Part shown: positions 9,571 to 64,000 of the stretch, piece after piece | Layout: each line of letters opens with the position of its first letter | How positions within the stretch are numbered: the first letter of the stretch is position 1 | From: Planctomycetota bacterium | GTDB taxonomy: Bacteria > Planctomycetota > UBA11346 | Assembly: GCA_038231435.1 (NCBI GenBank) | Contig: JBBRLJ010000012.1 | Span: 53,899-117,898 of the forward strand | DNA: 64,000 bases | Reading direction: 5' to 3' | Notes under the pieces: generated by a model | Databases searched by the model: none | What the model was told of the DNA's origin: nothing | Seen by the model: only the letters and a program-made list of their open reading frames with translations | Program-made: the position numbers and the translations under genes

Positions 9571-9635
9571 GCGGCGTGCGACGTGACGCCGAGGAAAGCA
9601 CGTACGCATCGTGGCTGTCCGCTCTCTTCCCCCGA

Positions 9636-9751
9636 CCGCCGAGTCCTGGTGCGTGAACCATGGGCGCAGCCCATCACGCAAACATTTTAGCCAGCAGTGA
9701 CAAAACGAAGGACGACCAGGGCCGTGGGGGTCCGGGGGCATAGCCCCTGAA
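9636..9751 (+). repeat. Structured intergenic repeat, module B plus terminal hairpin (degenerate copy)
   Basis: Aligns with 63909-64000 (+) and 19473-19592 (-): ccgccgagtcctggt..gcgtgaac.atgggcGCAgcccatcacgcaaac...gaaggacgac..ggccgtgggg. Confidence 0.88.
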
Positions 9752-9827
9752 TCAGGCAGCCGCACACCGCACCTTCCCATAAGCACCTCCCATATTGCGC
9801 GCAGGTCGGCAGCGCGAAGCTCGCGCC

Positions 9828-16913: not shown

Positions 16914-19265
16914 ATGCAAAGTACCCGGCTCCTTCCGTTGGTCCCGATGCCGCGTTCGGTGGCCATGGGCGAGGGACGGTACGTGATCGGGGATGCGGCG
17001 TGGCGCACGCATCCGTACGCGCTCGCGCGCTCGTCGATCGCGCACAAGCTCGCCCAGCTCTCGGCAGAGCTGCAAGGTGACGAGAAGATCCCGGAATACT
17101 CGGTGCGGGTCGGGGAACCGGCGAGCGAGGCTCCGCTGGTTTCGCGTCGCGGCGGCTATGGGTTGGCGATCAGCGCGCGCGGCTTGTCATTGCGCGGAGC
17201 TGATGCCGACGGCCTGTTCTGGGGGCTGGTCACCTGCGAGCGGCTCCTACTCGAGAGCGGCGGCAAGAGCCTGCCCGAGCTGGTGATCAGCGACTGGCCC
17301 GAGATCGCCGTGCGCATCCACCACGACGACGTCTCGCGCAAGCAGGTATCGCGCCTGGCTGACTTCAAGCGCATCGTGCGCTTGCTGTCCTCCTTCAAGA
17401 TCAGCCACTACACGCTCTACCTCGAGGACATGCTGCACCTGAAATCGTTTCCCGACATCGGCGAGGGCCGCGGCAAGCTGACGCCCGACGAGGTCGCCGC
17501 GATCGTCCGTGAGGGCGAGCTGCACAACGTCGAGGTGTTCCCGACCTTCCAGCTCATCGGCCATCAGGAGAACCTGCTGGCGCTGCCGAAATACGCGCAT
17601 CTCGGCCGCGCCGTGTTCCAGAGCATGAGCAGCCTCGACCCGGCCAAGCCCGAGGTGCGCGAGTTCCTGATCCGCGCGATCGACGACGTCTGCGCGCTGT
17701 TCCCGTCCAAGCTCTTCGGCATGGGCTTCGACGAGACCCAGGGCGTGGACCGGCAGACCTTCGTGGCCCACGCCAATTGGTGCGCCGAGCAGCTCGCCAA
17801 GCGCGGCAAGACTCCGCTGATGTGGGCCGACATGATCTACAACCATTTCGGCTGCGAGACGCTGCAGCTGCTGCATCCGTCGATCGTCCCGATCAATTGG
17901 ACCTACGAGCCGTCGCTGCCGGTGCCGCACCAGCGCGAGCTCGAAGCCCAGGGCCGTCCGGTGTGGGGCTACGCGGGCTACAACAACTGGTGTGCGTTCA
18001 TGCCCGACTTCGAGCGCGCGAAGGACTACCTATCGACCTGGGCGAAGCAGCTCGAGGGCCGGTCCGACGCTGCGCTCGCCGCGTCGATGTGGGGCGACGA
18101 CGGCTACGAGAACAGCCGCGACCTGTGCTGGAACCTGTTCGCCTACTTCGCCGAGGCGTCGTGGTCGGGACCGGATGCCGACCGAGCATCGTTCGAGCGG
18201 CGCTTCCAGCGCGCCTTCTACGGCGCCGAGCTGCCCGAGCTCGAGCACATGCTGGGTTCACTGGCCAGCCGCCTGTCGCATCCTCCGGGCTGGTACTGGC
18301 GGCTGCACCGCCGCAACGCCAACGCGCTCTTCAGGCTCGCCACCGCGGAGCCTGCGATCGCCGACCAGATGCGAGCCGACGAGCAGGTGCTCGAGGCCGC
18401 GCTGACATCGCTCGGCGCCTCCCGCGCCGCTGCGCGTCGCGAGGCCGAGCACCTCGATCACGTCGCGGTCGGGCTCGAGCGCCTGCTGTCGGTGACGAGG
18501 CGCATGGCCTTCGCGCATCGGCATCTCGCCAATGCTGACCCAGTCGCGCGCGCGCGCGACGGCATGGCGCTCGCCGACGAGCTCATCGCCGTGCGCGACC
18601 GTTACCGCGACGTCTGGCTGCGCCACAACAAGTCCGAGAACGTCGAGGTGTCGCTCGCGGTTTTCGATCGCGTCGCCGACAGCTTCCGCGCCCTCGCGGC
18701 ATCGTCTGCGCGCATGGGTGACAACGCGACGTTCGCGCCGATGGATCTCGGCGAGCGCGCCGACACCTGCTTTCTGGACATCGCCGGGATCCCGATCGGG
18801 ATCGGCGCAGCGCACGGCGTCCCATTCCGCTTTGCCGGCATCGACCGTACCCACGCCAAGCTCGCCGGCTCCAACAAGGTCGTGGGGCTCGGTTTCGAGC
18901 CCGCGTCCCTGCGCGATCTCCATCTCGTCGTCACGGCACCCAAGCCCGCTGACGAACAGCCCATGCCCGCACTGCGAGTGGAACTGTCCTTGCGCGGAAA
19001 GAGCGTGTTCAGCGAGGACCTGTCGCTGATCACCCACTTGTGCGATTGGTGGGCACCGATGGGCGAGCACATGTGGGCGGGCGGCGGTTACACATATGTC
19101 GACCGTTCACGTGTCACCTCGGCGTTCGCGCCCGACTCCTACTACGGACTGATGGACGTCCACGGTTTCGCCATCCCCGAGGGCGTGGTCGCGGACCGGC
19201 TCACACTCACGTCACTCATCGGTGCAGAGATCAACGTCTTCGCGGTGACCCTGGAAAGGCGCTGA
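16914..19265 (+). CDS. Glycoside hydrolase family 20-like (hexosaminidase-type) with C-terminal extension
   Basis: GH20b domain (GLFWGLVT..L...I.DWP), D.SR, Y.ED, FQLIGH, G.DE catalytic pair, WGDDG. Confidence 0.82.
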   Translation: MQSTRLLPLVPMPRSVAMGEGRYVIGDAAWRTHPYALARSSIAHKLAQLSAELQGDEKIPEYSVRVGEPASEAPLVSRRGGYGLAISARGLSLRGADADGLFWGLVTCERLLLESGGKSLPELVISDWPEIAVRIHHDDVSRKQVSRLADFKRIVRLLSSFKISHYTLYLEDMLHLKSFPDIGEGRGKLTPDEVAAIVREGELHNVEVFPTFQLIGHQENLLALPKYAHLGRAVFQSMSSLDPAKPEVREFLIRAIDDVCALFPSKLFGMGFDETQGVDRQTFVAHANWCAEQLAKRGKTPLMWADMIYNHFGCETLQLLHPSIVPINWTYEPSLPVPHQRELEAQGRPVWGYAGYNNWCAFMPDFERAKDYLSTWAKQLEGRSDAALAASMWGDDGYENSRDLCWNLFAYFAEASWSGPDADRASFERRFQRAFYGAELPELEHMLGSLASRLSHPPGWYWRLHRRNANALFRLATAEPAIADQMRADEQVLEAALTSLGASRAAARREAEHLDHVAVGLERLLSVTRRMAFAHRHLANADPVARARDGMALADELIAVRDRYRDVWLRHNKSENVEVSLAVFDRVADSFRALAASSARMGDNATFAPMDLGERADTCFLDIAGIPIGIGAAHGVPFRFAGIDRTHAKLAGSNKVVGLGFEPASLRDLHLVVTAPKPADEQPMPALRVELSLRGKSVFSEDLSLITHLCDWWAPMGEHMWAGGGYTYVDRSRVTSAFAPDSYYGLMDVHGFAIPEGVVADRLTLTSLIGAEINVFAVTLERR

Positions 19266-19336
19266 CGCAAACGCACCGCGCATCCCCGCGTGATGTCCGG
19301 AGCCTGAACGATGGATCATGCCCTCCTCTCCATCTC

Positions 19337-19764
19337 GGGGGCCCCATCGCTGGCGATGGAGCGGGCGCCGAGGGGCGGTCGGCGGATACCATCGGCGCAG
19401 CCGATCCGCCGACGATGTCGTAGCGCAGCGGAGACATCGAGCCCCGACAAAGCCCGTGGGGTAGGCCTTGGTGTTTCGGGGGCGTTGCCCCCGGACCCCA
19501 CGGCCTTTGTCGTCCTTCTTTTTGTCCCTGCGGGCCAAAAAGTTTGCGTGATGGGCTACGCCCATTGTTCACGCAAACCAGGACTCGGCGGCCGAGCGGC
19601 TGCGCCGCCTAAATCCGGAGCGCAGCGACCGGGCGCCGAGGGGCGGTCGGCGGATACCATCGGCGTAGCCGATCCGCCGACGATGTCGTAGCGCAGCGTA
19701 GACATCGAGCCCCGACAAAGCCCGTGGGGTAGGCCCACCGGGCCGTAGGGGCGAAGCCCCTGAA
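19337..19764. repeat. Composite structured repeat: hairpin D + A(+), inverted B, A(+) + terminal hairpin
   Basis: A copies 19363-19467 and 19631-19735 are 105 nt with 2 mismatches; B reversed at about 19496-19592; GTAGgggcGAAgcccctgaa at 19745-19764. Confidence 0.95.
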
Positions 19765-19775
19765 TGAAACCAAGC

Positions 19776-22700
19776 TCAGGCCACCACGACGTAGCTGATC
19801 GAGGACATCTCCAGCCTCGCCCCGGCCAGCGCCGCGCTCAGCGCTCCGGCCTGGCGCTCCTCGTCCAGCGCCTCGGCCTGCGCGCGCAGCGTCTCGGCGT
19901 GGCTCGGGCCCAGGGCCGCTTCCGCCGCCGCCGCCTGGCCTCTCGCCACCGCCACGCTCTCGGCGAATCCCGCCTCGAGACGCGCCAGCTGCGCGTCTCG
20001 CATCGCCGGCAGGCTGGCTTCCGCATGGCGTATCGCCGCGGCGCCAGCGAGACGCACGCGGTCCTGCCAGCGGGTCACCTGGTCGAGCGGACCCGCGACC
20101 ATCGGCCGGGCCCAGGCGTCGCGGCTCGCGCCCTGGCTGATGGTCGTGTCGCCGTTGCGGACGTCGAAGCCCGGAGCCAGGAGCGCGAGCGCCTCGGGAT
20201 CGGTCTCGACGGCGCCGTCGCCGCGCACGCACACGCTGATGCGCGACGGCGGCGCGATCAGGAACAGGCGGCGCAGGCTCTCGAGGCGCAGCTCGGCGGC
20301 GAGCACCGCGCCGAGATCGTAGCCGAGCGCGAACACCACGCGCACGCCTTCCCAGGCGGCGACGCCGCGCGCGGCCTTGCGCCGCCACGCCTGGGCCGCG
20401 CACCAGCGCGCGCCGGCGGCGTCGTCGAGAGTGCGGTCGACCAGGCCGTTGCCGACCGCGAAGAACGCCAGCTCCGGACGGCTGAGCGCGAGCTGGCGGT
20501 CGAGGGTACCGTGATCCGGCTTGTCGTTGTGGCGTGCGCGCAGGTGGAAGAGCTTGTGTGATTCATCGTCTCGGCGGGCGCTTCCGCCCATGCCGCGCAG
20601 CCAGCGCAGCACGGCCTCGACCGGCGCCTGCGCGGTGTCTATCGCCTGCGCGAGCTTGGCGGCCTCGGCGAAGACGCCGGTCTCCTGCTGGAAGAGCTCC
20701 TCCTCGCGGCGGTCGGCGGTGGCGCGCTCGCGGGCCACGATCCCAGCGAGCTCGGGCTCGATCGCGCGCAGCGCCTCGGCGCCAGCGGCCAGGGTCGCGG
20801 CGAGCGAACGCGCCTCGATCGCATCGGTGACGAATTCGAGCCCAGACGACGGCCCGGTGAACACCCCCACCGCGCGTTCGAGGATATCCGCCCAGGCCGC
20901 GTCCACGCACTCGGGGGAGTCGCCGGCGATCACCCAGCTGGGCACGTCGCCGTCGCGCCCGATGCGGTCGACGCGCCCGATGCGCTGCTCGACCCCGGCG
21001 ATCGACCAGGGCAGATCGTGGTGCGCCACCACCGAGACGAACTGGAAGTTGCGGCCTTCGCCGCCGAGCGGATCGCAGACCATCGCCCAGCAGCGCGCGT
21101 CGTCGCGGAAGCGGCGCGCGGCCTCCTCGCGCGCGACGGTGTCCTGGTGCGCGCCGAAAGTCTCGATCGCGTGCTCGCCGAAGGTCTCGATGAGGGCCTG
21201 CTCGAGCGGCGCGACGGTCAGGCCGTGGTTGGTGAAGATCAGCACCTTCTCTTGCGGATGCTCGATCCAGAATTCCTCGAGCCGCTTGATCAGGGCCTTG
21301 TCGCGCGACGGCACCTTCTTGCCCCACGCCGCGGCGGCGGCGCGCAATGCCTCGAGCGCCGGCGTCTCGTCGGGATTGTCGCAATGGCAGGCGGCGCTGA
21401 CCGCGACGTGGGCGGTGATCTCGTTCTCGGACAGGTCGTTGCGCAGCACCTGCGATAACGTCTCGCCCGTGAGCGCGCGGTCGCGGTACTCGGCGAATTC
21501 CTCGGGATCGGCCAAGACCGTGGCGCGCATGGCCAGCAGGCGTTCGAGCACCCGCGGGTGCGCGCCCACCGCCAATTCGACCTGCAGCAGCCAGTGCGCG
21601 AGGCGGGGTGGGATCTCCCGAGGCCCGGTTCCGCCTGCTTGCGCTTCAGCGGCTTCGGTCGACGCAGCGGCTTCGGCAAGCTTGGGTTTGCGCTTCTTCT
21701 TGCCGCCAGCGGCGGGACTACCGCCAGCGGCGGAATTGCCGCCTACAGTGGAATCGCCATCTGCTGCGGCGCTGTCAGTCGGGGCGACGTCCATGGCTGT
21801 GACAGCCCCCGCGTACGGCGACATCAGCGCCGCGCGGTATGCGGCGAACTGCTCGCGCACCGACGCTTCAGCCTTGTCGAGGGTGTAGCCGACGCGCTCG
21901 ACGGTGCGCACGGCCATGGTCAGGCCGGCGACGCCGGTGGCCTGCGAGAGCCGGGCGAGCACGTGACGGCGGTGGCGGACGATGCGGTGATCGAGCTGGT
22001 GGTGCTCGCGCACATGGGCCATGACCGATGCCCGCGCCGCTTCCAGCGCGGAGTCGTCGCCCGCCGCGGACAGCGCCTCGGCGCGGGCGGCGAGCAGGGG
22101 GTCGGCGCCGAGCAGTGCCTTCCACGCCGGAGCCAGCGCGCGCAGGCCATCAACCGTGGCGTCGCGAGTGCGGCCGAGCAGTTCGACGACGCGGTCGTGG
22201 GCGGCGAGCTTGGCGGCGAAGCCTTCGTGATCGTCGACGCGGTACACCTGCGGCTGCAGAAGCGCCAGCAGCGCGAGGTACGCGTCCGGATGCTGGCGGG
22301 CGGGCGTCGCCGAGAGCAGCAGTACGTGCGGGCTGTGGCGGCTGAGCAGCGAGACGCGCTTGTAGAGCACGCCATGCGGCTGCATGCGGTGGCACTCGTC
22401 CACCACCAACAGGTCCCATTGCGACTGCGCGACGCGCAGCGCGCCCTTGTTGTCGAGTTCCTCGAGCGCGCGGTTCGAGGCGATGACGAACTGCTCGTCC
22501 TTCCAGGGATTGCCCGGATGGGTCTGCAGGCGTTCGCTGTCGAGCATCAGGAAGGGGCGGCCGCCGAACTTGACGAACAACTCGAGGAACCATTGGCTGA
22601 CCAGCGCGCCGGGCACCACCACCAGCACGCGCAGGGTCGGCTGCATCGCCAGCAGCGACTGCATGACCAATCCCGCCTCGATGGTCTTGCCGAGTCCGAC

Positions 22701-23291
22701 CTCGTCGGCGAGCAGGAAGCGGATCTGGCGATCGGCGAGCACACGCCGAGCCGTTAGCAGCTGGTGCGGCAGGGGGCGCACGCGCGCGCCGGCGAGCGAG
22801 ACCACGCCGCCGGTTCCCGACCACGCCGAGTCGCGCCAGGCGAGCAGCTCCTCGCGCGCGCTGAAGATCGGCGGGCCCCAGGGCTCGGGCGGCGATCGCG
22901 TGCCATGTGCCGGGCGCAGGTCGTGGAAGGTCGCGGTGGCGAGTTGCTCGAGCGGATCCGAGGGGATCGTCACCGACGCGATGGCGTCCTCGCGAATCCG
23001 CGTCTCGACGCCGTCCTCGTAGCGCACGCCATAGACCAGCAGACCGCTGGTAGCGTCGCGCTGGATCCCCTGCGGCAGGATGTGCGCCGCGCGTGGCGCG
23101 GCGCCGGAGACCGCCACCGTCACGCGGGTGCCGGGCAGCAGCGCGTAGCGCGATACCTGGCGGCTCTCCTGCGTCTTGACCGCGCCGGTGGTGAGGAAGC
23201 GGATGGTGGAGTTGCCGCCCTGTTCGGCGGTCAAGCGCGCGACACCCTCGGATTGCAGTTCGGGAATCGCGACCAGGGCTCCGACGGGCAT
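19776..23291 (-). CDS. SNF2-family ATPase, RapA/HepA-like
   Basis: LPHQL, LLADEVGLGKTIEAG, VDECH, LLSATP, GGEGRNFQF, DLPW...EQRIGR.DRIG. Confidence 0.88.
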   Translation of the reverse strand: MPVGALVAIPELQSEGVARLTAEQGGNSTIRFLTTGAVKTQESRQVSRYALLPGTRVTVAVSGAAPRAAHILPQGIQRDATSGLLVYGVRYEDGVETRIREDAIASVTIPSDPLEQLATATFHDLRPAHGTRSPPEPWGPPIFSAREELLAWRDSAWSGTGGVVSLAGARVRPLPHQLLTARRVLADRQIRFLLADEVGLGKTIEAGLVMQSLLAMQPTLRVLVVVPGALVSQWFLELFVKFGGRPFLMLDSERLQTHPGNPWKDEQFVIASNRALEELDNKGALRVAQSQWDLLVVDECHRMQPHGVLYKRVSLLSRHSPHVLLLSATPARQHPDAYLALLALLQPQVYRVDDHEGFAAKLAAHDRVVELLGRTRDATVDGLRALAPAWKALLGADPLLAARAEALSAAGDDSALEAARASVMAHVREHHQLDHRIVRHRRHVLARLSQATGVAGLTMAVRTVERVGYTLDKAEASVREQFAAYRAALMSPYAGAVTAMDVAPTDSAAADGDSTVGGNSAAGGSPAAGGKKKRKPKLAEAAASTEAAEAQAGGTGPREIPPRLAHWLLQVELAVGAHPRVLERLLAMRATVLADPEEFAEYRDRALTGETLSQVLRNDLSENEITAHVAVSAACHCDNPDETPALEALRAAAAAWGKKVPSRDKALIKRLEEFWIEHPQEKVLIFTNHGLTVAPLEQALIETFGEHAIETFGAHQDTVAREEAARRFRDDARCWAMVCDPLGGEGRNFQFVSVVAHHDLPWSIAGVEQRIGRVDRIGRDGDVPSWVIAGDSPECVDAAWADILERAVGVFTGPSSGLEFVTDAIEARSLAATLAAGAEALRAIEPELAGIVARERATADRREEELFQQETGVFAEAAKLAQAIDTAQAPVEAVLRWLRGMGGSARRDDESHKLFHLRARHNDKPDHGTLDRQLALSRPELAFFAVGNGLVDRTLDDAAGARWCAAQAWRRKAARGVAAWEGVRVVFALGYDLGAVLAAELRLESLRRLFLIAPPSRISVCVRGDGAVETDPEALALLAPGFDVRNGDTTISQGASRDAWARPMVAGPLDQVTRWQDRVRLAGAAAIRHAEASLPAMRDAQLARLEAGFAESVAVARGQAAAAEAALGPSHAETLRAQAEALDEERQAGALSAALAGARLEMSSISYVVVA

Positions 23292-26577: not shown

Positions 26578-26837
26578 GTAGAGGCCTCCGCCCCTACGGC
26601 CTGCGGCCCGGGGGCGGAGCCCCCGAAACAAATACAGCTAGAGGACTCCACTGCCCGCAGGACGCAGCCCCTGAAAATTCACGCACTCGGGGGCCCCATC
26701 GCCCGCGATGGGGCGGACGCCGAGGGGCGGTCGGCGGATACAATCGGCGTAGCCGATCCGCCGACGATGTCGTAGCGCAGCGTAGACATCGAGCCCCGAC
26801 AAAGGCCGTGGGGGCCCGGGGGCGGAGCCCCCGAAAC
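26578..26837 (+). repeat. Composite structured repeat: terminal hairpins, hairpin D, module A with B-type tail
   Basis: Module A at 26718-26812 nearly identical to 19634-19729; gggggcGGAgcccccgaaac tail present twice; abuts the PhyH stop codon. Confidence 0.93.
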
Positions 26838-27634
26838 TAAAAGAGCTTGGGATTGCGCGGCGTCGCGATCGGCTCGCCGATCACCGCCCCCGGCATCCAT
26901 CCCAGGTCGGCCTCTTGGTTGACGCTAGCCGGCTTCGCCAGGCGCATGCCGTCCTCGAAGTAGATGACGGTCATGACCGCGCGCGGCCGCTCGGTGCGGT
27001 TTGGCCCAGCGCGGTGGAAGGTCCAGCCGCTATGGAAGCTGACCTCGCCGAGCGCGAACGCCGAGACCTCGACGGGGAGATCCTTGAGCGTCTTGGCGAG
27101 CACGCGCTCGCTCTCGTCGCCGATCACCAGGTTGCGGCCGAAATCAGCGCGGTGGCTGGTGACCGAGAACTCGAGCGGGCCCATCTCGAGGGGCACGGCC
27201 TGGAAGGGCGCCCACACCGTGCAGCAGTTGTTGTTGCCGAGTGGCCAATACGCCTGGTCGGCATGCCACGGCGTGAAACCGCCACCGGGCTCCTTGTAGA
27301 GGGCTTGATCGTGGTACATGCGTACGCCGGCCACGCCCATCAGTTCGGCGGCGATGCGCGCGAGGCGCTTCGAGAACACGAATTCGCGCGCGGTCTGGTC
27401 GCGCTCCCAGAGGTTCATGACCTGCAGGAATGCCTTGCCGTAGGTGTCGCGCGCTTCGATCGGTCGCTTGTCGCCGAGCTCACGCACCAGAGCGCTGATG
27501 CGCGAACCGTAGTGCTCGAGGAGGTTCGCGCCGAGCACGTCGCGGAGCTTGATGAAGCCCTGCTCGTGGAAACTGGCGATCTGCTCGCGGCTCAGCGGAT
27601 AGTGGGTGTCCAGATCGTGCAGCAAGGCGGGCAT
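26837..27634 (-). CDS. PhyH family dioxygenase
   Basis: VRMYHDQALYKEPGGG.TPWHADQ.YWP, FH.GWTFHRAG.N...R. Confidence 0.92.
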   Translation of the reverse strand: MPALLHDLDTHYPLSREQIASFHEQGFIKLRDVLGANLLEHYGSRISALVRELGDKRPIEARDTYGKAFLQVMNLWERDQTAREFVFSKRLARIAAELMGVAGVRMYHDQALYKEPGGGFTPWHADQAYWPLGNNNCCTVWAPFQAVPLEMGPLEFSVTSHRADFGRNLVIGDESERVLAKTLKDLPVEVSAFALGEVSFHSGWTFHRAGPNRTERPRAVMTVIYFEDGMRLAKPASVNQEADLGWMPGAVIGEPIATPRNPKLF

Positions 27635-38374: not shown

Positions 38375-39292
38375 ATGATCAGTTCCGCCACCACCGTGCG
38401 CTTCGCCGAGCGCGACCTGGAGCTTGGCGGCAAGTACCTGGGCGAGCTGCGCGAATCCAACGACGTGCTCGACGATCCCGAGGCGCTGCGCCAGCGCATG
38501 GCCGCCGACGGGTACCTGCTGGTGCGCGGCCTGCACGATCCAGCCGCGGTGGCGGCCGCCCGCCGCGAACTCTTCACCGAGTTCGCCAAGACCGGCGCCT
38601 TCGATCCCTCGTTCCCGGTCCTGGATGGGATCATCAATCCGAAGCCCGAGGCGCAGGCGCCGGGATTCGTGGGCGGCGCCGATCTCACCCGCGGCAAGGC
38701 CTTCCTCGATCTGGTCGAGGGCCGTCCAGTGATGGATTTCTTCTCCCGCTTCCTCGGCGAGCCCGCACTGACCTTCGACTTCAAGTGGATGCGCTTCATC
38801 GGCAACGGCCAGTACACCGGAGCCCATTTCGACAATGTCTACATGGGCCGCGGCAGCGCGCGCCTGTACACGGTATGGACACCGATCGGCGACGTCACCA
38901 TGGACATGGGCCCGCTCGCCATCCATGTCGGCTCGAGTACCTCGGCGTCGTTTGCCCGCGTCCGCGAGACCTACGGTCAGATGGACGTCGATCGCGATCG
39001 CGTCGACGGCTGGTTCTCGAACGACCCGGTCGAGATCGTCGACCGCTTCGGCGGCCGCTGGGCCACGGGCGAGTTTCGCGCTGGCGACGCGCTGATCTTC
39101 GGCATGTACACCATGCACGCGTCGCTCACCAACGTCTCCAATCGCTTCCGGCTCACCTCGGACACCCGTTACCAGCCCGCCGCAGAGCCCACCGACGAGC
39201 GCTGGGTCGGCGAGAAGCCGAAAGCGCACTACGGCTGGCATGCCGGCCCCCAGGTGCCGATGGCGCAGAAACGTCAGGAGTGGGGGATCTAG
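38375..39292 (+). CDS. PhyH family dioxygenase (tandem paralog 1)
   Basis: DGYLLVRG, FKWMR, TGAHFD.VYMGRG, VWTP.GD, HASL.N...R...DTRYQ. Confidence 0.9.
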   Translation: MISSATTVRFAERDLELGGKYLGELRESNDVLDDPEALRQRMAADGYLLVRGLHDPAAVAAARRELFTEFAKTGAFDPSFPVLDGIINPKPEAQAPGFVGGADLTRGKAFLDLVEGRPVMDFFSRFLGEPALTFDFKWMRFIGNGQYTGAHFDNVYMGRGSARLYTVWTPIGDVTMDMGPLAIHVGSSTSASFARVRETYGQMDVDRDRVDGWFSNDPVEIVDRFGGRWATGEFRAGDALIFGMYTMHASLTNVSNRFRLTSDTRYQPAAEPTDERWVGEKPKAHYGWHAGPQVPMAQKRQEWGI

Positions 39293-39341
39293 TGATGAGG
39301 GTAAGGGGAGGAACTCTGAAATTAACCCCGCCCTGCCCGCT

Positions 39342-39442
39342 CCTTCCGGGGGGGCAGCGCGGAGCGCGATGTTGGGGGGATCGCGAAGCGATCTCAGATG
39401 CCCTTTGGGGCATCTGCCGTCCGCAGGAAGTAGCCCCCCAAC
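39342..39442 (+). repeat. Structured intergenic repeat, module C
   Basis: 39363-39442 matches the reverse complement of 60049-60128 with 2 mismatches; closing stem gttgggggg/ccccccaac with three internal hairpins. Confidence 0.93.
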
Positions 39443-39452
39443 CGAAAGCCCC

Positions 39453-40352
39453 ATGACCACCGTCACCTTCGGCAAACACCAGTGCGAGATCGGAGGGCCG
39501 CAGCTGGGGATGCTGCGCGAGTCCAACGATCTGCGCGATGATTTCGCGGCGTTGCGCTCGCGGCTCGATGAGGACGGGTATCTGCTGATCCGCGGGCTGT
39601 ACGATCCGGCGGATGTGCTCGCGGCGCGGCGCGAGATCCTGGCGCAGGCGCATGGCTATCTCGAGCCGGGGAGCGATCCGATGGAGGCCGTGATCAATCG
39701 CGCGCCGCCGAAGGATCTGCCGTTCATCAGCCATGGCTCGCCGACCACGCGCGGGCCGGCATTCTTGTCGCTGGTCGAGGGTCCGCGAGTGATGCGTTTC
39801 TTCGCTGGGCTGTTCGCGGAACCGGCGACCACCTTCGATTTCAAGTGGCTGCGTCTGACCTGGAAGGGACAGACCACCGGCGCGCACTTCGACAACAGCT
39901 ACATGGGCCGCGGCAGTCCGCGCGTGCACACGGTGTGGTCGCCGCTCGGCGACATCTCGTACGATCACGGTCCGCTGGCGATCGTCCCCGGTTCCCACCG
40001 CGCTCCCGGCTACGCCCACCTGCGCGAGACCCTCGGTCTGATGGACGTCGATCGCGATCGCGTGCGAGGCGATTTCAGCGATGACGCCCTCGAGTTCACC
40101 AACCGCTTCGGCGGCCGCTGGGCGACGAGCGAGTTCAAGGCCGGCGACGCCATCATCTTCGGCATGTTCACGCTGCACGCGTCGCTGACCAACGTCTCAG
40201 ACCGCTTCCGCCTGTCGTCGGACACCCGCTACCAACCGGCGAGCGAACCCGCCGACGAGCGCTGGGTCGGCGAGAAGCCGAAGGGCCATTACGCCTGGTT
40301 CGCGGGCGAGGGCGTGGAGATGGCGAAGAAGAAGAAGGAGTGGGGCTTTTAG
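39453..40352 (+). CDS. PhyH family dioxygenase (tandem paralog 2)
   Basis: Same motifs as 38375..39292 along the whole length (TGAHFD, DERWVGEKPK, EWG). Confidence 0.9.
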   Translation: MTTVTFGKHQCEIGGPQLGMLRESNDLRDDFAALRSRLDEDGYLLIRGLYDPADVLAARREILAQAHGYLEPGSDPMEAVINRAPPKDLPFISHGSPTTRGPAFLSLVEGPRVMRFFAGLFAEPATTFDFKWLRLTWKGQTTGAHFDNSYMGRGSPRVHTVWSPLGDISYDHGPLAIVPGSHRAPGYAHLRETLGLMDVDRDRVRGDFSDDALEFTNRFGGRWATSEFKAGDAIIFGMFTLHASLTNVSDRFRLSSDTRYQPASEPADERWVGEKPKGHYAWFAGEGVEMAKKKKEWGF

Positions 40353-40410
40353 TTGGGGGGCTACGGCCCCCCAACATCGGCCTCCGGCCTGCCCCCCAGG
40401 AAGAAACGGG
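40352..40410 (-). repeat. Internally deleted module C (closing stem and tail only)
   Basis: gttggggggctac-gg-ccccccaacatcg...ctgcccccc.ggaagaaac.gg shared with 60049-60180. Confidence 0.8.
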
Positions 40411-40444
40411 TTGGGTGAGGTAGGGGGCCAGACTGCGGCGTCCT

Positions 40445-40507
40445 TCTTCAGTCTTCAGTCTTCAGTCTTCAGTCTTCAGTCTTCCGTCTTCCGTCTTCCC
40501 TCTTCCC
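40445..40507 (+). repeat. 7-bp tandem array (TCTTCAG)5(TCTTCCG)2(TCTTCCC)2
   Basis: Read directly from the sequence. Confidence 0.95.
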
Positions 40508-60002: not shown

Positions 60003-60048
60003 GGCGTGGATCGTGGCAGCGCGGTGACGGGGGCAACGCCATCTCTTA

Positions 60049-60180
60049 GTTGGGGGGCTACTTCCTACGGACGGCAGATGCCGCAAAGGGCATCTGAGAT
60101 CGCTTCGCGATCCCCCCAACATCGCGCTGCCCCTAGCGACCGGGGCCTTACGCCGCCGCTGCCCCCCGGGAAGAAACAGG
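60049..60180 (-). repeat. Structured intergenic repeat, module C
   Basis: Reverse complement of 39342-39442 with an extra segment of about 27 nt in the tail. Confidence 0.93.
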
Positions 60181-60284
60181 AAGTGAGGGTTTCAGGAGCA
60201 GGCACCATTGCCGCTTCTCTACTCCATACGGACTGGGGGCGGACTCCCCTTGCCCGGCGCACCGATCCCCCATCCTCGCCGGCG

Positions 60285-62119: not shown

Positions 62120-63710
62120 GGCGTCGGATCCGACCGTGCGACTGAGCGCGCGTTCGGCAGTTCCGACGGAGCCGGGTATCGCGGGCGATGCCGTCGTCGC
62201 CGAGCCCGCACGCCCGTGGCTGCCGTGGCTCGCGCTCGGCATGATGCTCGGCTGCATGGCCCCGGGCGCGGCAGCGCTCGCGGTCGGCGCCGGCTCGGCG
62301 ATGTCCTGGTGGTGGTGCTGTGGCGTGCCGCTGGCGCTCGCGGCCGCGTGGTTCGAGGCGCCGATCCCGCGCTGGGAGCGAGCCCGCCTGCCGCTGGCGT
62401 CGCGCGTGTTGGCGCTCGCCGCGGCGGCGCTCCTGGGCGGGGCGCTCGCCGAGCGCGCCGGCGCGGGCCCAGGCGCCGACCCCGCCGCGTCGGCGCCGCG
62501 CCTGATGGAGCTCGAGGGAACGGTCACCACGCTCGGGCGCCTCGGCTACCACCAGTGGGCGACGCTGTCGCCGTCGCGGATGCTGCTCCCGACCGACGCG
62601 CCGCTGCCGCGCCGACTGTCAGTCGACGTCGAGGACGCACTGCCCGGCCTGGTGGTGGGCGACCTGGTGCGGGTGCGCGGAGAATGGCAGCGCGGCTCGC
62701 GCGGCGAGAGCATCGACGCGGTGGGCGTCGAGCGCCTGGTGATCCGCGAGAACGGCCCCCGGGGTTGGGCGTGGCGGGCGCTGGATCGCGTGCAGGGCCA
62801 CCGCGCCCTCGCCGAGTCGCTGCTGATCGGCCAGGGCAGCCCGCCCGAGCTCATGGATTTCCGTCGATCCGGGCTGATGCACGTGCTCGCGGTCAGCGGC
62901 ATGCACCTGGTGATCGCGGTGATGCTGGCGTCGTGGCTGATGCGCCTGGTGGGACTCGGCTGGTGGCCGCGGCAGCTGGCGCTGGTGGCGCTGGTGGCGG
63001 GCTACACGTGGCTCACCGCCGCGTCGCCGGCGACCATGCGCGCATTAGCGATGGAACTGAGCGTGATCGCCATGGGCGTGATGGCGCGCGAGCCGCATCG
63101 CTTCGCGGCGATGAGCCTGTCGGTGATCGTGCTGCTGGTGATGGATCCGCTCTATGCCACCGACATCGGCTTCCAGCTCTCGATCGTGGCGGTCGCGGGC
63201 ATCATCACCCTGGGCATGGATCTCGCCCGCCTGCGCGAGCGTGCGCTGCCGCTCGCGGCCTGGCCGCTCGACCGGCCAGCCTGGCGCGGGCTGCTGTGGT
63301 GCGGGCGCAGCGCGTGCGACGGCTTCGCGATCGGGATCAGCGCGACGCTCGCCACCGCGCCCATCATCGCCTGGCACTTCTGCACCGCGTATCCGTGGTC
63401 GGCGCTGGCGACCCTGTTCGCATCGCCGCCCGCGACCGGCGCGCTGTGGCTCGGGCTCCCATGCCTGGGCCTCGATGGATTGTTTCCGAACGGTCCTTGG
63501 GAAGGCCTCTACGCCGGACTCGAGGCGAGCCTGCACGCGCTGGCGGTGGTGGTGTCATGGGCCGCGACCTGGCCCGGAGCGATGCTGAGCGTAGGCGTGC
63601 CGTCGCTGGCGATGGTGATGCTGTGGCCGCTGCTGTTCATCTCGCTGCGCGACGCCCGCGACCTGGCGCTGCGCGTGGCGGCCGTGTGTGCCTTGCTGCT
63701 GCTCTGGTGA
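62070..63710 (+). CDS. comEC: ComEC/Rec2 competence membrane protein (no C-terminal MBL domain)
   Basis: FRRSGL.HVLAVSGMH, P..RA..M, DIGFQLS..AV.GI, T.PI..WHF; start uncertain. Confidence 0.88.
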   Translation: MPRMSSPNPATATPPAEASDPTVRLSARSAVPTEPGIAGDAVVAEPARPWLPWLALGMMLGCMAPGAAALAVGAGSAMSWWWCCGVPLALAAAWFEAPIPRWERARLPLASRVLALAAAALLGGALAERAGAGPGADPAASAPRLMELEGTVTTLGRLGYHQWATLSPSRMLLPTDAPLPRRLSVDVEDALPGLVVGDLVRVRGEWQRGSRGESIDAVGVERLVIRENGPRGWAWRALDRVQGHRALAESLLIGQGSPPELMDFRRSGLMHVLAVSGMHLVIAVMLASWLMRLVGLGWWPRQLALVALVAGYTWLTAASPATMRALAMELSVIAMGVMAREPHRFAAMSLSVIVLLVMDPLYATDIGFQLSIVAVAGIITLGMDLARLRERALPLAAWPLDRPAWRGLLWCGRSACDGFAIGISATLATAPIIAWHFCTAYPWSALATLFASPPATGALWLGLPCLGLDGLFPNGPWEGLYAGLEASLHALAVVVSWAATWPGAMLSVGVPSLAMVMLWPLLFISLRDARDLALRVAAVCALLLLW

Positions 63711-63719
63711 GATTTTTTT

Positions 63720-64000
63720 TTCAGGGGCTTCGCCCCTACGGCCCTGGCGGGCCTACCCCACGGGCTTTGTCGGGGCTCGGTTTCTCCGCTTCGCTACGAA
63801 ACCGTCGGCGGATCGGCTTCTCCGATTGTATCCGCCGACCGCCCCTCGGCGCCCGCCCCATCGCTGGGCGATGGGGCCCCCGTCCAATCGGGCGGCCCAG
63901 CCGCCCGGCCGCCGAGTCCTGGTTTGCGTGAACAATGGGCGCAGCCCATCACGCAAACTTTCTGGCCGCCTGGCGGACAGAAAGAAGGACGACAAAGGCC
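63720..64000. repeat. Composite structured repeat: terminal hairpin + A(-), hairpin D, B(+); runs off the window
   Basis: 63720-63854 is the reverse complement of 19631-19764 with substitutions; 63907-64000 is the reverse complement of 19502-19593. Confidence 0.95.

Follow-up and report, generated by a model that had tools for sequence, protein, structure and literature searches.

Does the interval 19337..19764 of the window, the whole 64,000-nt stretch of planctomycete DNA analyzed here, hold two repeat families or one, and by what means does such a repeat spread? The sequence-only reading had described two families of different sequence, A with four copies and B with three, sharing one three-way-junction fold, and had suggested a non-autonomous mobile unit or a structured substrate for a trans-acting protein. 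Both sequences and their stems are present exactly as first written. With a covariance model trained on 82 copies, both A-like and B-like, exactly seven strong matches were obtained in the window, the same four A and three B copies, at 58.6–104.6 bits (five of the seven had belonged to the training set), and the next-best match scored 16 bits. The motif GACAAAGSCCGTGGGG, with up to two mismatches, was matched six times against 0.04 expected, and 34 of the 60 paired positions are identical between the A copy at 19363 and the B copy at 63907. A and B are the poles of one continuum that includes hybrids; the common fold claimed at first, and the suggestion of one structurally selected element family, were borne out.

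The repeat is about 160 nt long and reaches up to a few hundred copies per genome within one bacterial family. In the genome of the window (G000; other G-numbers denote genomes compared and L-numbers loci compared), a permissive pattern found at least 195 cores, approximately 120 A-like and 75 B-like, in 136 clusters, and profile searches gave about 300 matches with fragments counted in. Head-to-head pairs joined A to B in 18 cases, compared with 2 A-A and 4 B-B pairs. None of the 136 clusters overlapped a called gene by more than 40 nt (gene calls were from our own codon model, and the tail sets used below were defined by regular expressions). The cores are therefore intergenic, as first claimed, but the A-rich tail can cover the last codons of a gene, as at 26837–26839. 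Of 24 same-family genomes, 14 contained the core pattern, and 2 of 16 genomes from elsewhere had a single occurrence apiece, which is the level of the reversed control; the tail pattern was present in 29 of 47 same-family genomes. The covariance model matched 4 of 6 genomes of the family and none of 144 others in a phylum sample. True matches in GTDB were mostly from Planctomycetota, after 11 chance pattern matches and L099, which is identical to a stretch of G000, had been dropped from a set of 80 loci. A CGCCGA...GACAAAG look-alike in L213, L241 and L253 was also dropped, as it scored only 20.5 bits and had no tail. A conserved Oscillospiraceae sequence (L044, L102 and L122) fits the search pattern three times and not the model, and is possibly a separate repeat. 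In L048, L080, L104 and L112, compared to G000, elements lie at synteny breaks or beside a 3.4-kb gap, possibly reflecting element-linked rearrangements.

Features of the window that bear on the repeat, with covariance-model matches where they were obtained
Feature	Coordinates	Strand	Core (model match)	Details
B copy, degenerate	9627..9753	+	9634-9729	between methyltransferase and YjeF/NnrD genes
A copy 1	19335..19467	+	19363-19461	5' hairpin 19335-19362; three-way junction
A copy 1, stem P0	19363-65/19453-55	+		internal loop CGCCGA 19366-71, GACAAAG 19446-52
B copy	19468..19612	-	19496-19593	5' hairpin ~19595-19612; terminal hairpin 19478-19492
A copy 2, complete	19615..19775	+	19631-19729	5' hairpin; A-rich end
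SNF2-type helicase gene	19776..23291	-		TGA 19776-19778, 15 nt from terminal hairpin of A copy 2
Hybrid, A core with B-type tail	26687..26843	+	26715-26813	
Family C copy	39325..39459	+		~60-nt branched insert in terminal hairpin loop; limits approximate
Family C copy	40346..40440	-		body unlike A/B, tail plan alike; 5' limit approximate
Family C copy	60040..60200	-		loop insert as in 39325..39459; limits approximate
A copy	63711..63882	-	63756-63854	
B copy	63889..64000	+	63907-64000	head-to-head with A copy; cut by window end

Read 5′ to 3′ along its G/A-rich strand, the A/B unit is 150–175 nt long and consists of an optional 5′ hairpin, stem P0 (3 bp and a near-invariant C-G), the internal loop GCCGA/GACAAA, stem P1 and a three-way junction with the linkers G and GA, which carries P2a, an A-rich bulge and P2b with a GNA cap, and then P3. 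The 3′ part is made up of a G-run, an optional inner hairpin (in A), a terminal hairpin of G-run, triloop and C-run, and an A-rich end of 9–11 nt. The unit as first outlined was too small, for it lacked the 5′ hairpin and the 3′ tail. The motifs CGCCGA and GACAAAG are conserved as the sequence-only reading had stated, but they are not free ends; they form an internal loop closed by a further covarying stem, P0. That reading included neither this stem nor the tail; it also lacked a sister family, C, and the location of the fixed 3′ end at stop codons and tRNA ends.

The three copies of the interval 19337..19764 illustrate how units are joined. The tail of A copy 1 ends at 19467, where the tail of the B copy joins it, so that its terminal hairpin is missing, and the 10-nt A-rich end of the B copy (19468–19477) is fused into it. 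The B end has thus replaced the terminal hairpin of A copy 1, and the identical A/B tail junction recurs elsewhere in G000 (C23:77075). A copy 2, head-to-head with the B copy, has two GTAG-preceded hairpins ending at 19760. The TAG of a convergent PhyH-family gene (26837–26839) lies within the A-rich end of the hybrid copy, 4 nt from the hairpin, and the tail of the A copy at 63711..63882 abuts the TGA of a ComEC-family gene (63708–63710), 13 nt from the hairpin. The interval 38375–40352 holds a tandem pair of PhyH-family paralogues spaced by 1060 nt, with a family C copy flanking each. Short intergenic tandem repeats of 6–7 nt are present at 40440–40480, at the end of G000 contig C2 and in a relative (L124).

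The stems are maintained by covariation. In an alignment fitted to the model, double changes affected 754 of 3231 cells, 95.3% paired, and were found in all five helices; an unfitted MAFFT alignment gave 477 double-change cells, 89.8% paired. The observed covariation exceeded that of all 500 shuffles and of all slid controls, in agreement with the earlier claim of one structurally constrained family. Since these controls leave relatedness in, the counting was repeated along a minimum spanning tree, which gave 257 double and 176 single changes (144 to a mismatch, some of which stem from a register shift in B, and 32 to G-T). An AT-rich relative has kept P0, the internal loop and the tail, with P2 reduced to a simple hairpin.

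Covariation of this kind might be a by-product of template-switch correction of quasi-palindromes, acting on an ordinary repeat whose fold has no role. Such templated correction predicts an excess of double over single changes, and the stems are almost purely Watson–Crick. However, the long-range stems P0 and P1 covary across 80–90 nt, and CGCCGA, GACAAAG, GA and the bulge adenines are invariant across genera and in the AT-rich relative. Furthermore, the G-A mismatch motifs of P3 (GXA/GYA in 59, tandem GA in 40 and single G-A in 38 of 255 copies) have been retained in 137 copies and not corrected. We regard this explanation as very unlikely.

The folded molecule is likely single-stranded DNA, as judged from GNA triloops and the near absence of G-T pairs. 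Among the 256 distinct copies retained by the structure parser from 278, the P2b loop is C-GNA-G in 238, and G-T pairs occupy 63 of 7221 stem cells. Genome-wide, GNA or ANA loops with an A-rich 3′ side were found in 206 cases and their complements in 1. DNA mini-hairpins melt at 76.5°C, compared with 39°C for RNA GCGAAAGC, bind SSB poorly and are found at replication origins, according to passages of PMC13037366. The alternative that the repeat is a structured RNA, either a 3′-UTR stabilizer or an antisense RNA held at stop codons by host selection on termination or mRNA decay, would also fit the covariation; the hairpin lies mostly within the ribosome footprint of the stop, and known REPs are concentrated at ORF 3′ ends and are argued in part of PMC3733652 to act as RNA. 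We consider it unlikely nonetheless. G-U is nearly absent and the loops are of the DNA type, the strand that bears the GNA loops and A-rich end is antisense to the neighboring gene (the gene on the 3′ side points toward the element in 81 of 99 cases), insertion sites vary among genomes, and Rfam holds no match. Against a single-stranded DNA mobile element, on the other hand, counts the replication-strand bias, which is weak and not clear (99 versus 79); a lagging-strand HUH reaction might give such a bias.

The repeat is polar. Of 203 HMM matches away from contig ends, 190 reach the last bin of the model and their starts are spread, so the 3′ end is fixed and the 5′ end is variable. Among 253 tails facing a gene or tRNA end, 223 lie within 17 nt of it when tail remnants are trimmed (A 85/106, B 76/78, C 62/69) and 167 when they are not (64, 59 and 44, respectively), compared to 6–21% under random placement; the 5′ side is equally close to a gene in about 5 of 40 cases. 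In family C the distance is exactly 9 nt in 37 of 69 cases and 2 nt in 15. Clusters occupy 30 convergent, 37 codirectional and 5 divergent gaps, versus 160, 801 and 470 for other gaps. When 70 evaluable tails of relatives were put through a crude ORF test, 28 proved to be within 17 nt of a stop and 12 farther away, and no stop was found for 30. ARAGORN genes are abutted in 5 of 57 cases in G000, with or without an encoded CCA, and tRNAs are abutted in four other loci of relatives. Large tRNA gene arrays in L156 (13 genes), L172 and L119 contain element copies, and L193 (G006:C7:176305-178228) holds a long tandem array of near-identical copies with a period of about 149 nt near a tRNA gene.

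The neighboring gene often takes its stop and last codon from the tail. Of 64 genes that a tail overlaps (distance of 6 nt or less), 40 have a last codon ending in T, compared with 10 of 77 at 9 nt or more and 379 of 4012 overall (9%); T-ending last codons under the overlap imply that the tail is part of the element and lies over the end of the gene. Among 21 ortholog pairs, five filled genes retain the last residue but encode it by a T-ending synonym, and three or more are shorter by 4–11 residues, whereas orthologs without the element have a C-ending synonym or are a few residues longer; frr shows the same shift to a T-ending synonym. In 20 of the 21 pairs G000 has no element, the exception being an identical sequence. 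The changes probably ran toward the gene ends that the element covers. AGC was considered as a target motif and rejected, as NGC last codons made up 13% versus 15%. REPs in general lie less than 20 bp from ORF ends (PMC3733652, in part), so host selection could contribute here as well. An element-driven ratchet, as opposed to host selection, is favored by the varied donors of the remnants, by the overwriting of last codons and by the exactness of the joints at tRNAs.

Family C shows the same tail on another body. Its 96 tails in G000 end in AAC-H-R-A-N-AG, followed by C or T in 90%, and its pattern matched 89 times in G000 and twice in 40 relatives. In the copy at 40346..40440 the tail consists of a G-run, GCAG and a GNA hairpin, a G6/C6 hairpin ending at 40355 and the 9-nt end. 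The ends of A/B are blurrier than those of C, as 56 A and 35 B tails have no AG end. At least three bodies are found on the shared tail, namely A/B, C and one in G187. The body in G187 (L320:2186-2270) is one long hairpin on a tail of G-run, GNA hairpin and A-rich end, downstream of a group II intron; the start of L320 carries a second remnant like group II DV. The tail was considered as part of the intron and rejected, since it falls outside it.

A fixed 3′ end, a variable 5′ end, a variable A-rich tail and exact joints at tRNA CCA ends would also be expected of a SINE-like retroelement, an RNA with an A-rich tail that is reverse-transcribed at T-rich 3′ ends. We give this explanation scarcely any credence. 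Reverse transcriptase genes were found in 33 of 47 relatives but not in the many-copy carriers G000, G002, G020, G190 and G191, the C tail has invariant positions, joints are also made at tRNA genes without encoded CCA, and there is no target duplication: the longest word shared by the flanks averaged 4.02, against 3.80 ± 0.14 in shuffled controls (maximum 4.23; n = 44).

On balance, we lean toward A/B being one covarying branched repeat with a fixed 3′ and a variable 5′ end, likely single-stranded DNA and likely non-autonomous, that is moved in trans by a putative, probably HUH-type, ssDNA strand-transfer enzyme. First, the G/A-rich strand would fold when exposed, its GNA mini-hairpins resisting SSB. 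Second, the enzyme would bind the terminal G-run/GNA/C-run hairpin and cut on its 3′ side at a distance of 9–11 nt; in family C, as in many copies of A/B, the cut would follow AG. Third, the cut end would be joined before a pyrimidine, often near a resident copy's terminal hairpin and with matching orientation. Fourth, recombination between the two direct repeats would collapse them; with the new end upstream, either a remnant of the end or a tandem array would be left, and with the new end downstream, the intervening DNA would be deleted. Finally, such rounds would ratchet the end forward until it met an indispensable stop codon, a tRNA 3′ end or a last codon that can be re-encoded, and copies with the 3′ end facing a promoter would be purged, giving the orientation bias. 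The branched core probably serves as a further module, for protein binding or priming, and would persist because copies that keep it intact are better at spreading. Direct targeting of stops is unlikely, given that no sequence is common to stop codons and tRNA ends and that many of the joints fall within the last codons of genes; a selection-limited ratchet fits the gene-end placement.

Several observations bear on these steps. Stacked C ends are identical at variable sites in 2 of 26 pairs, versus 3.2 expected for unrelated copies, and being as different as unrelated copies they are not local duplications. Junction microhomology amounts to a few bases only, and one site in G000 (C17:3506) holds an uncollapsed partial and full copy. 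We infer that other copies inserted repeatedly near the resident terminal hairpin, followed by direct-repeat collapse. Among the matches listed from Logan contigs, no joint skipped an element, and among the sequencing runs listed, none with the repeat was an RNA run. Relatives showed no clean empty site of the kind the sequence-only reading had proposed to look for, their intergenic alignments being too diverged to read or to reveal deleted DNA. TnpA-REP cleaves and strand-transfers single-stranded BIMEs (PMC3333891, in part), and by analogy an HUH enzyme would most likely be the catalyst.

Compared to REP/BIME/REPIN elements with their RAYTs, the repeat has several features in common: hundreds of intergenic copies, inverted heterodimers and tandem arrays; a position near ORF 3′ ends, where REPs lie within 20 bp and can supply stops (PMC3733652, in part); and GTAG before both A tail hairpins in G000 (145 and 147 of 150 A tails, a figure partly built into the search pattern). 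The differences are as follows. A REP is one 20–40-bp hairpin, whereas this repeat spans 150–175 nt with at least five helices. B has no tag before the terminal hairpin, GTAG being found in none of the eight commonest B motifs (85 of 95). GCAG in 96 of 96 C tails is there by construction, and relatives show GCGG, GTGG and GCAG variants. The stop that the repeat supplies is encoded by the A-rich tail in reverse complement and not by a GTAG end. None of 31 Y1 loci was a directly flanked RAYT. By size, fold and flanked RAYT, and apparently by the tag in B, the repeat is not a member of REP/BIME. In REP/BIME elements cleavage takes place at C|T on the tagged strand; the junctions of family C are AG|Y when the folded strand is read, with CT on the opposite one. 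The fold is not REP/BIME-like, but the behavior is more so than had been thought.

Other systems match in part. IS200/IS605 elements end about 10 nt 3′ of a hairpin, and PATEs are their non-autonomous derivatives. The repeat resembles their right ends in its subterminal hairpin and fixed 3′ end, and likewise has no terminal inverted repeats or target duplication; the cleavage logic underlying this comparison is set out in part of PMC6006769. Unlike them, it has no fixed left end or conserved target tetranucleotide (a weak A/T/C bias is seen upstream) and it has a large branched core; no TnpB was found in G000, nor any autonomous partner with the same ends. Bacterial MITEs such as ERIC, RUP, Correia, CIR and YPAL are also small, non-coding, structured and often 3′ of genes, but the majority of them carry terminal inverted repeats, TA ends and target duplications (PMC2229807, in part), none of which were seen in the repeat. 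By the tests run, the repeat belongs neither to the MITEs nor to an Rfam family nor to the retroelements. IS91 has one fixed and one variable end and forms tandem multimers. The repeat shares with IS91 and Helitrons the fixed end with a nearby hairpin, the variable other end and the tandem multimers, but Y2 transposases were found in 10 of 47 relatives, mostly low-copy carriers or non-carriers, and none is flanked by the repeat. The Helitron 3′ hairpin is described in part of PMC4778049.

Single-strand origins and primosome assembly sites raise a further alternative, that the core is a single-strand replication signal (sso-, ssi- or primosome-assembly-like, or an ssDNA site bound by sigma70) spread by host restart or priming proteins or by transient rolling-circle replicons, with no dedicated transposase. 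The GNA mini-hairpins and tandem G-A motifs of the repeat are also present in ColE1 and F (GA-GC-GNA-GC-GA and G4C-GNA-GC3), with two matches in ColE1 and one in the stretch of F, at sites that we take to be primosome assembly sites. In addition, the bulge hexamer resembles a −10 box (A2 in 251, A5 in 253, T6 in 252 and T1 in 182 of 256 copies), five of eight divergent G019 copies carry TAnnnT in a hairpin loop, and a G6C-GCA-GC6 hairpin is present in the Rep region of G000. However, the model had no match in ColE1, G4, 22 kb of F (45–67 kb) or the Rep region (best E, 0.15), and the repeat is chromosomal, multi-copy and without a match in the plasmids, phages and viral contigs searched. Only 6 bp lie downstream of the hexamer, too short for a normal bubble, and priming alone leaves the precise end joining unexplained. 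The repeat shares building blocks with the ColE1 and F signals, not structure, and this alternative, which deserves some weight, is improbable.

The search for a mobilizing enzyme must be read with the completeness of G000 (88%) in mind, as mobile genes are often unassembled and this bears on every gene absence there. Its candidates are one Pfam Y1 gene with a partial second copy, a family-wide Y1-like gene that looks inactive, and one PF23343 Rep; none of them is flanked by the repeat. TnpB, RT, IS110 and Rep_trans were not found in G000, and Y2 and Rep_1 gave no match in searches whose controls were equally silent. Across 31 Y1 loci scanned for the repeat by motif (20 of them also with the model), none was directly flanked, so the proposed check for adjacent RAYT/TnpA-REP genes came back negative; the mobile unit moved by a trans-acting protein, which the sequence-only reading had put forward, is still the best reading. 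The sole Y1 locus with a copy, L032, has it 1 kb off beyond another gene, and its Y1 has inverted repeats of its own. Y1 genes of relatives are flanked by their own repeats: in L014-L019 (G018, G006, G022, G005, G020 and G004), short Y1 genes have multi-copy palindromic repeats unrelated to A/B. No repeat copy was present at 12 Y2 and 12 RT loci of relatives, and inspection by eye of 17 genes with repeats on both sides revealed no recognizable mobile-element enzyme.

Two of the candidates have features of their own. The Y1-transposase-like gene G000:C25:40497-41336(+) (L180) is single-copy, with 35–64% identical orthologs in most genera of the family, and repeat copies lie about 2 kb from it in G000, G002 and G019. 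Judged from its sequence it is likely a domesticated, inactive HUH protein; it was rejected as mobilizer, having neither the HUH histidines nor the catalytic tyrosine, and a search of the high-copy genus g2 yielded no close orthologs. The gene G000:C43:18435-19481(-) (L179:2436-3482) encodes a rolling-circle HUH Rep (PF23343) with the G6C-GCA-GC6 hairpin in its 5′ part; alongside it are a structured upstream region rich in GNA, a divergent HTH repressor and cargo genes of low GC content. It was not found in the 47 relatives or in viral contigs.

The repeat has no counterpart among the catalogs searched. Comparison with Rfam, as first proposed, gave no gathering-level match in the window or in 12 related loci, tRNAs aside (best E, 1.7 on 19250–19800). 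Two patterns had no match in viral contigs, and BLASTN against phages and plasmids gave no match covering more than 22%. No paper describing the repeat turned up in the literature searches; the supplements of PMC3733652, PMC5737381 and PMC6429828 could hold related motifs. Collectively, the branched ssDNA repeat with its polar, gene-end-rewriting spread is real, strongly constrained and apparently undescribed.

These findings have several implications. First, natural ssDNA structures beyond a hairpin are rare in the record (PMC5737381, in part), and hundreds of covarying copies define the constraints of this complex ssDNA fold. Second, the sharp 3′ end offers a cleaner view than REPs do of why repeats end at stop codons. 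Third, the shared tail on at least three bodies indicates that the missing enzyme may tolerate varied cargo. Fourth, the repeats break assemblies, as 81 of the 195 cores in G000 lie within 300 nt of a contig end. Tentatively, and with clearly less confidence, the repeat may represent a new class of bacterial ssDNA selfish element, in which a branched fold rides on a shared hairpin-plus-tail mobility end and would be moved by an enzyme outside Y1, Y2, Rep and RT or by host replication-restart proteins, and whose one-way ratchet would trim intergenic DNA and, in hundreds of genes of the host, rewrite stop codons and final residues.
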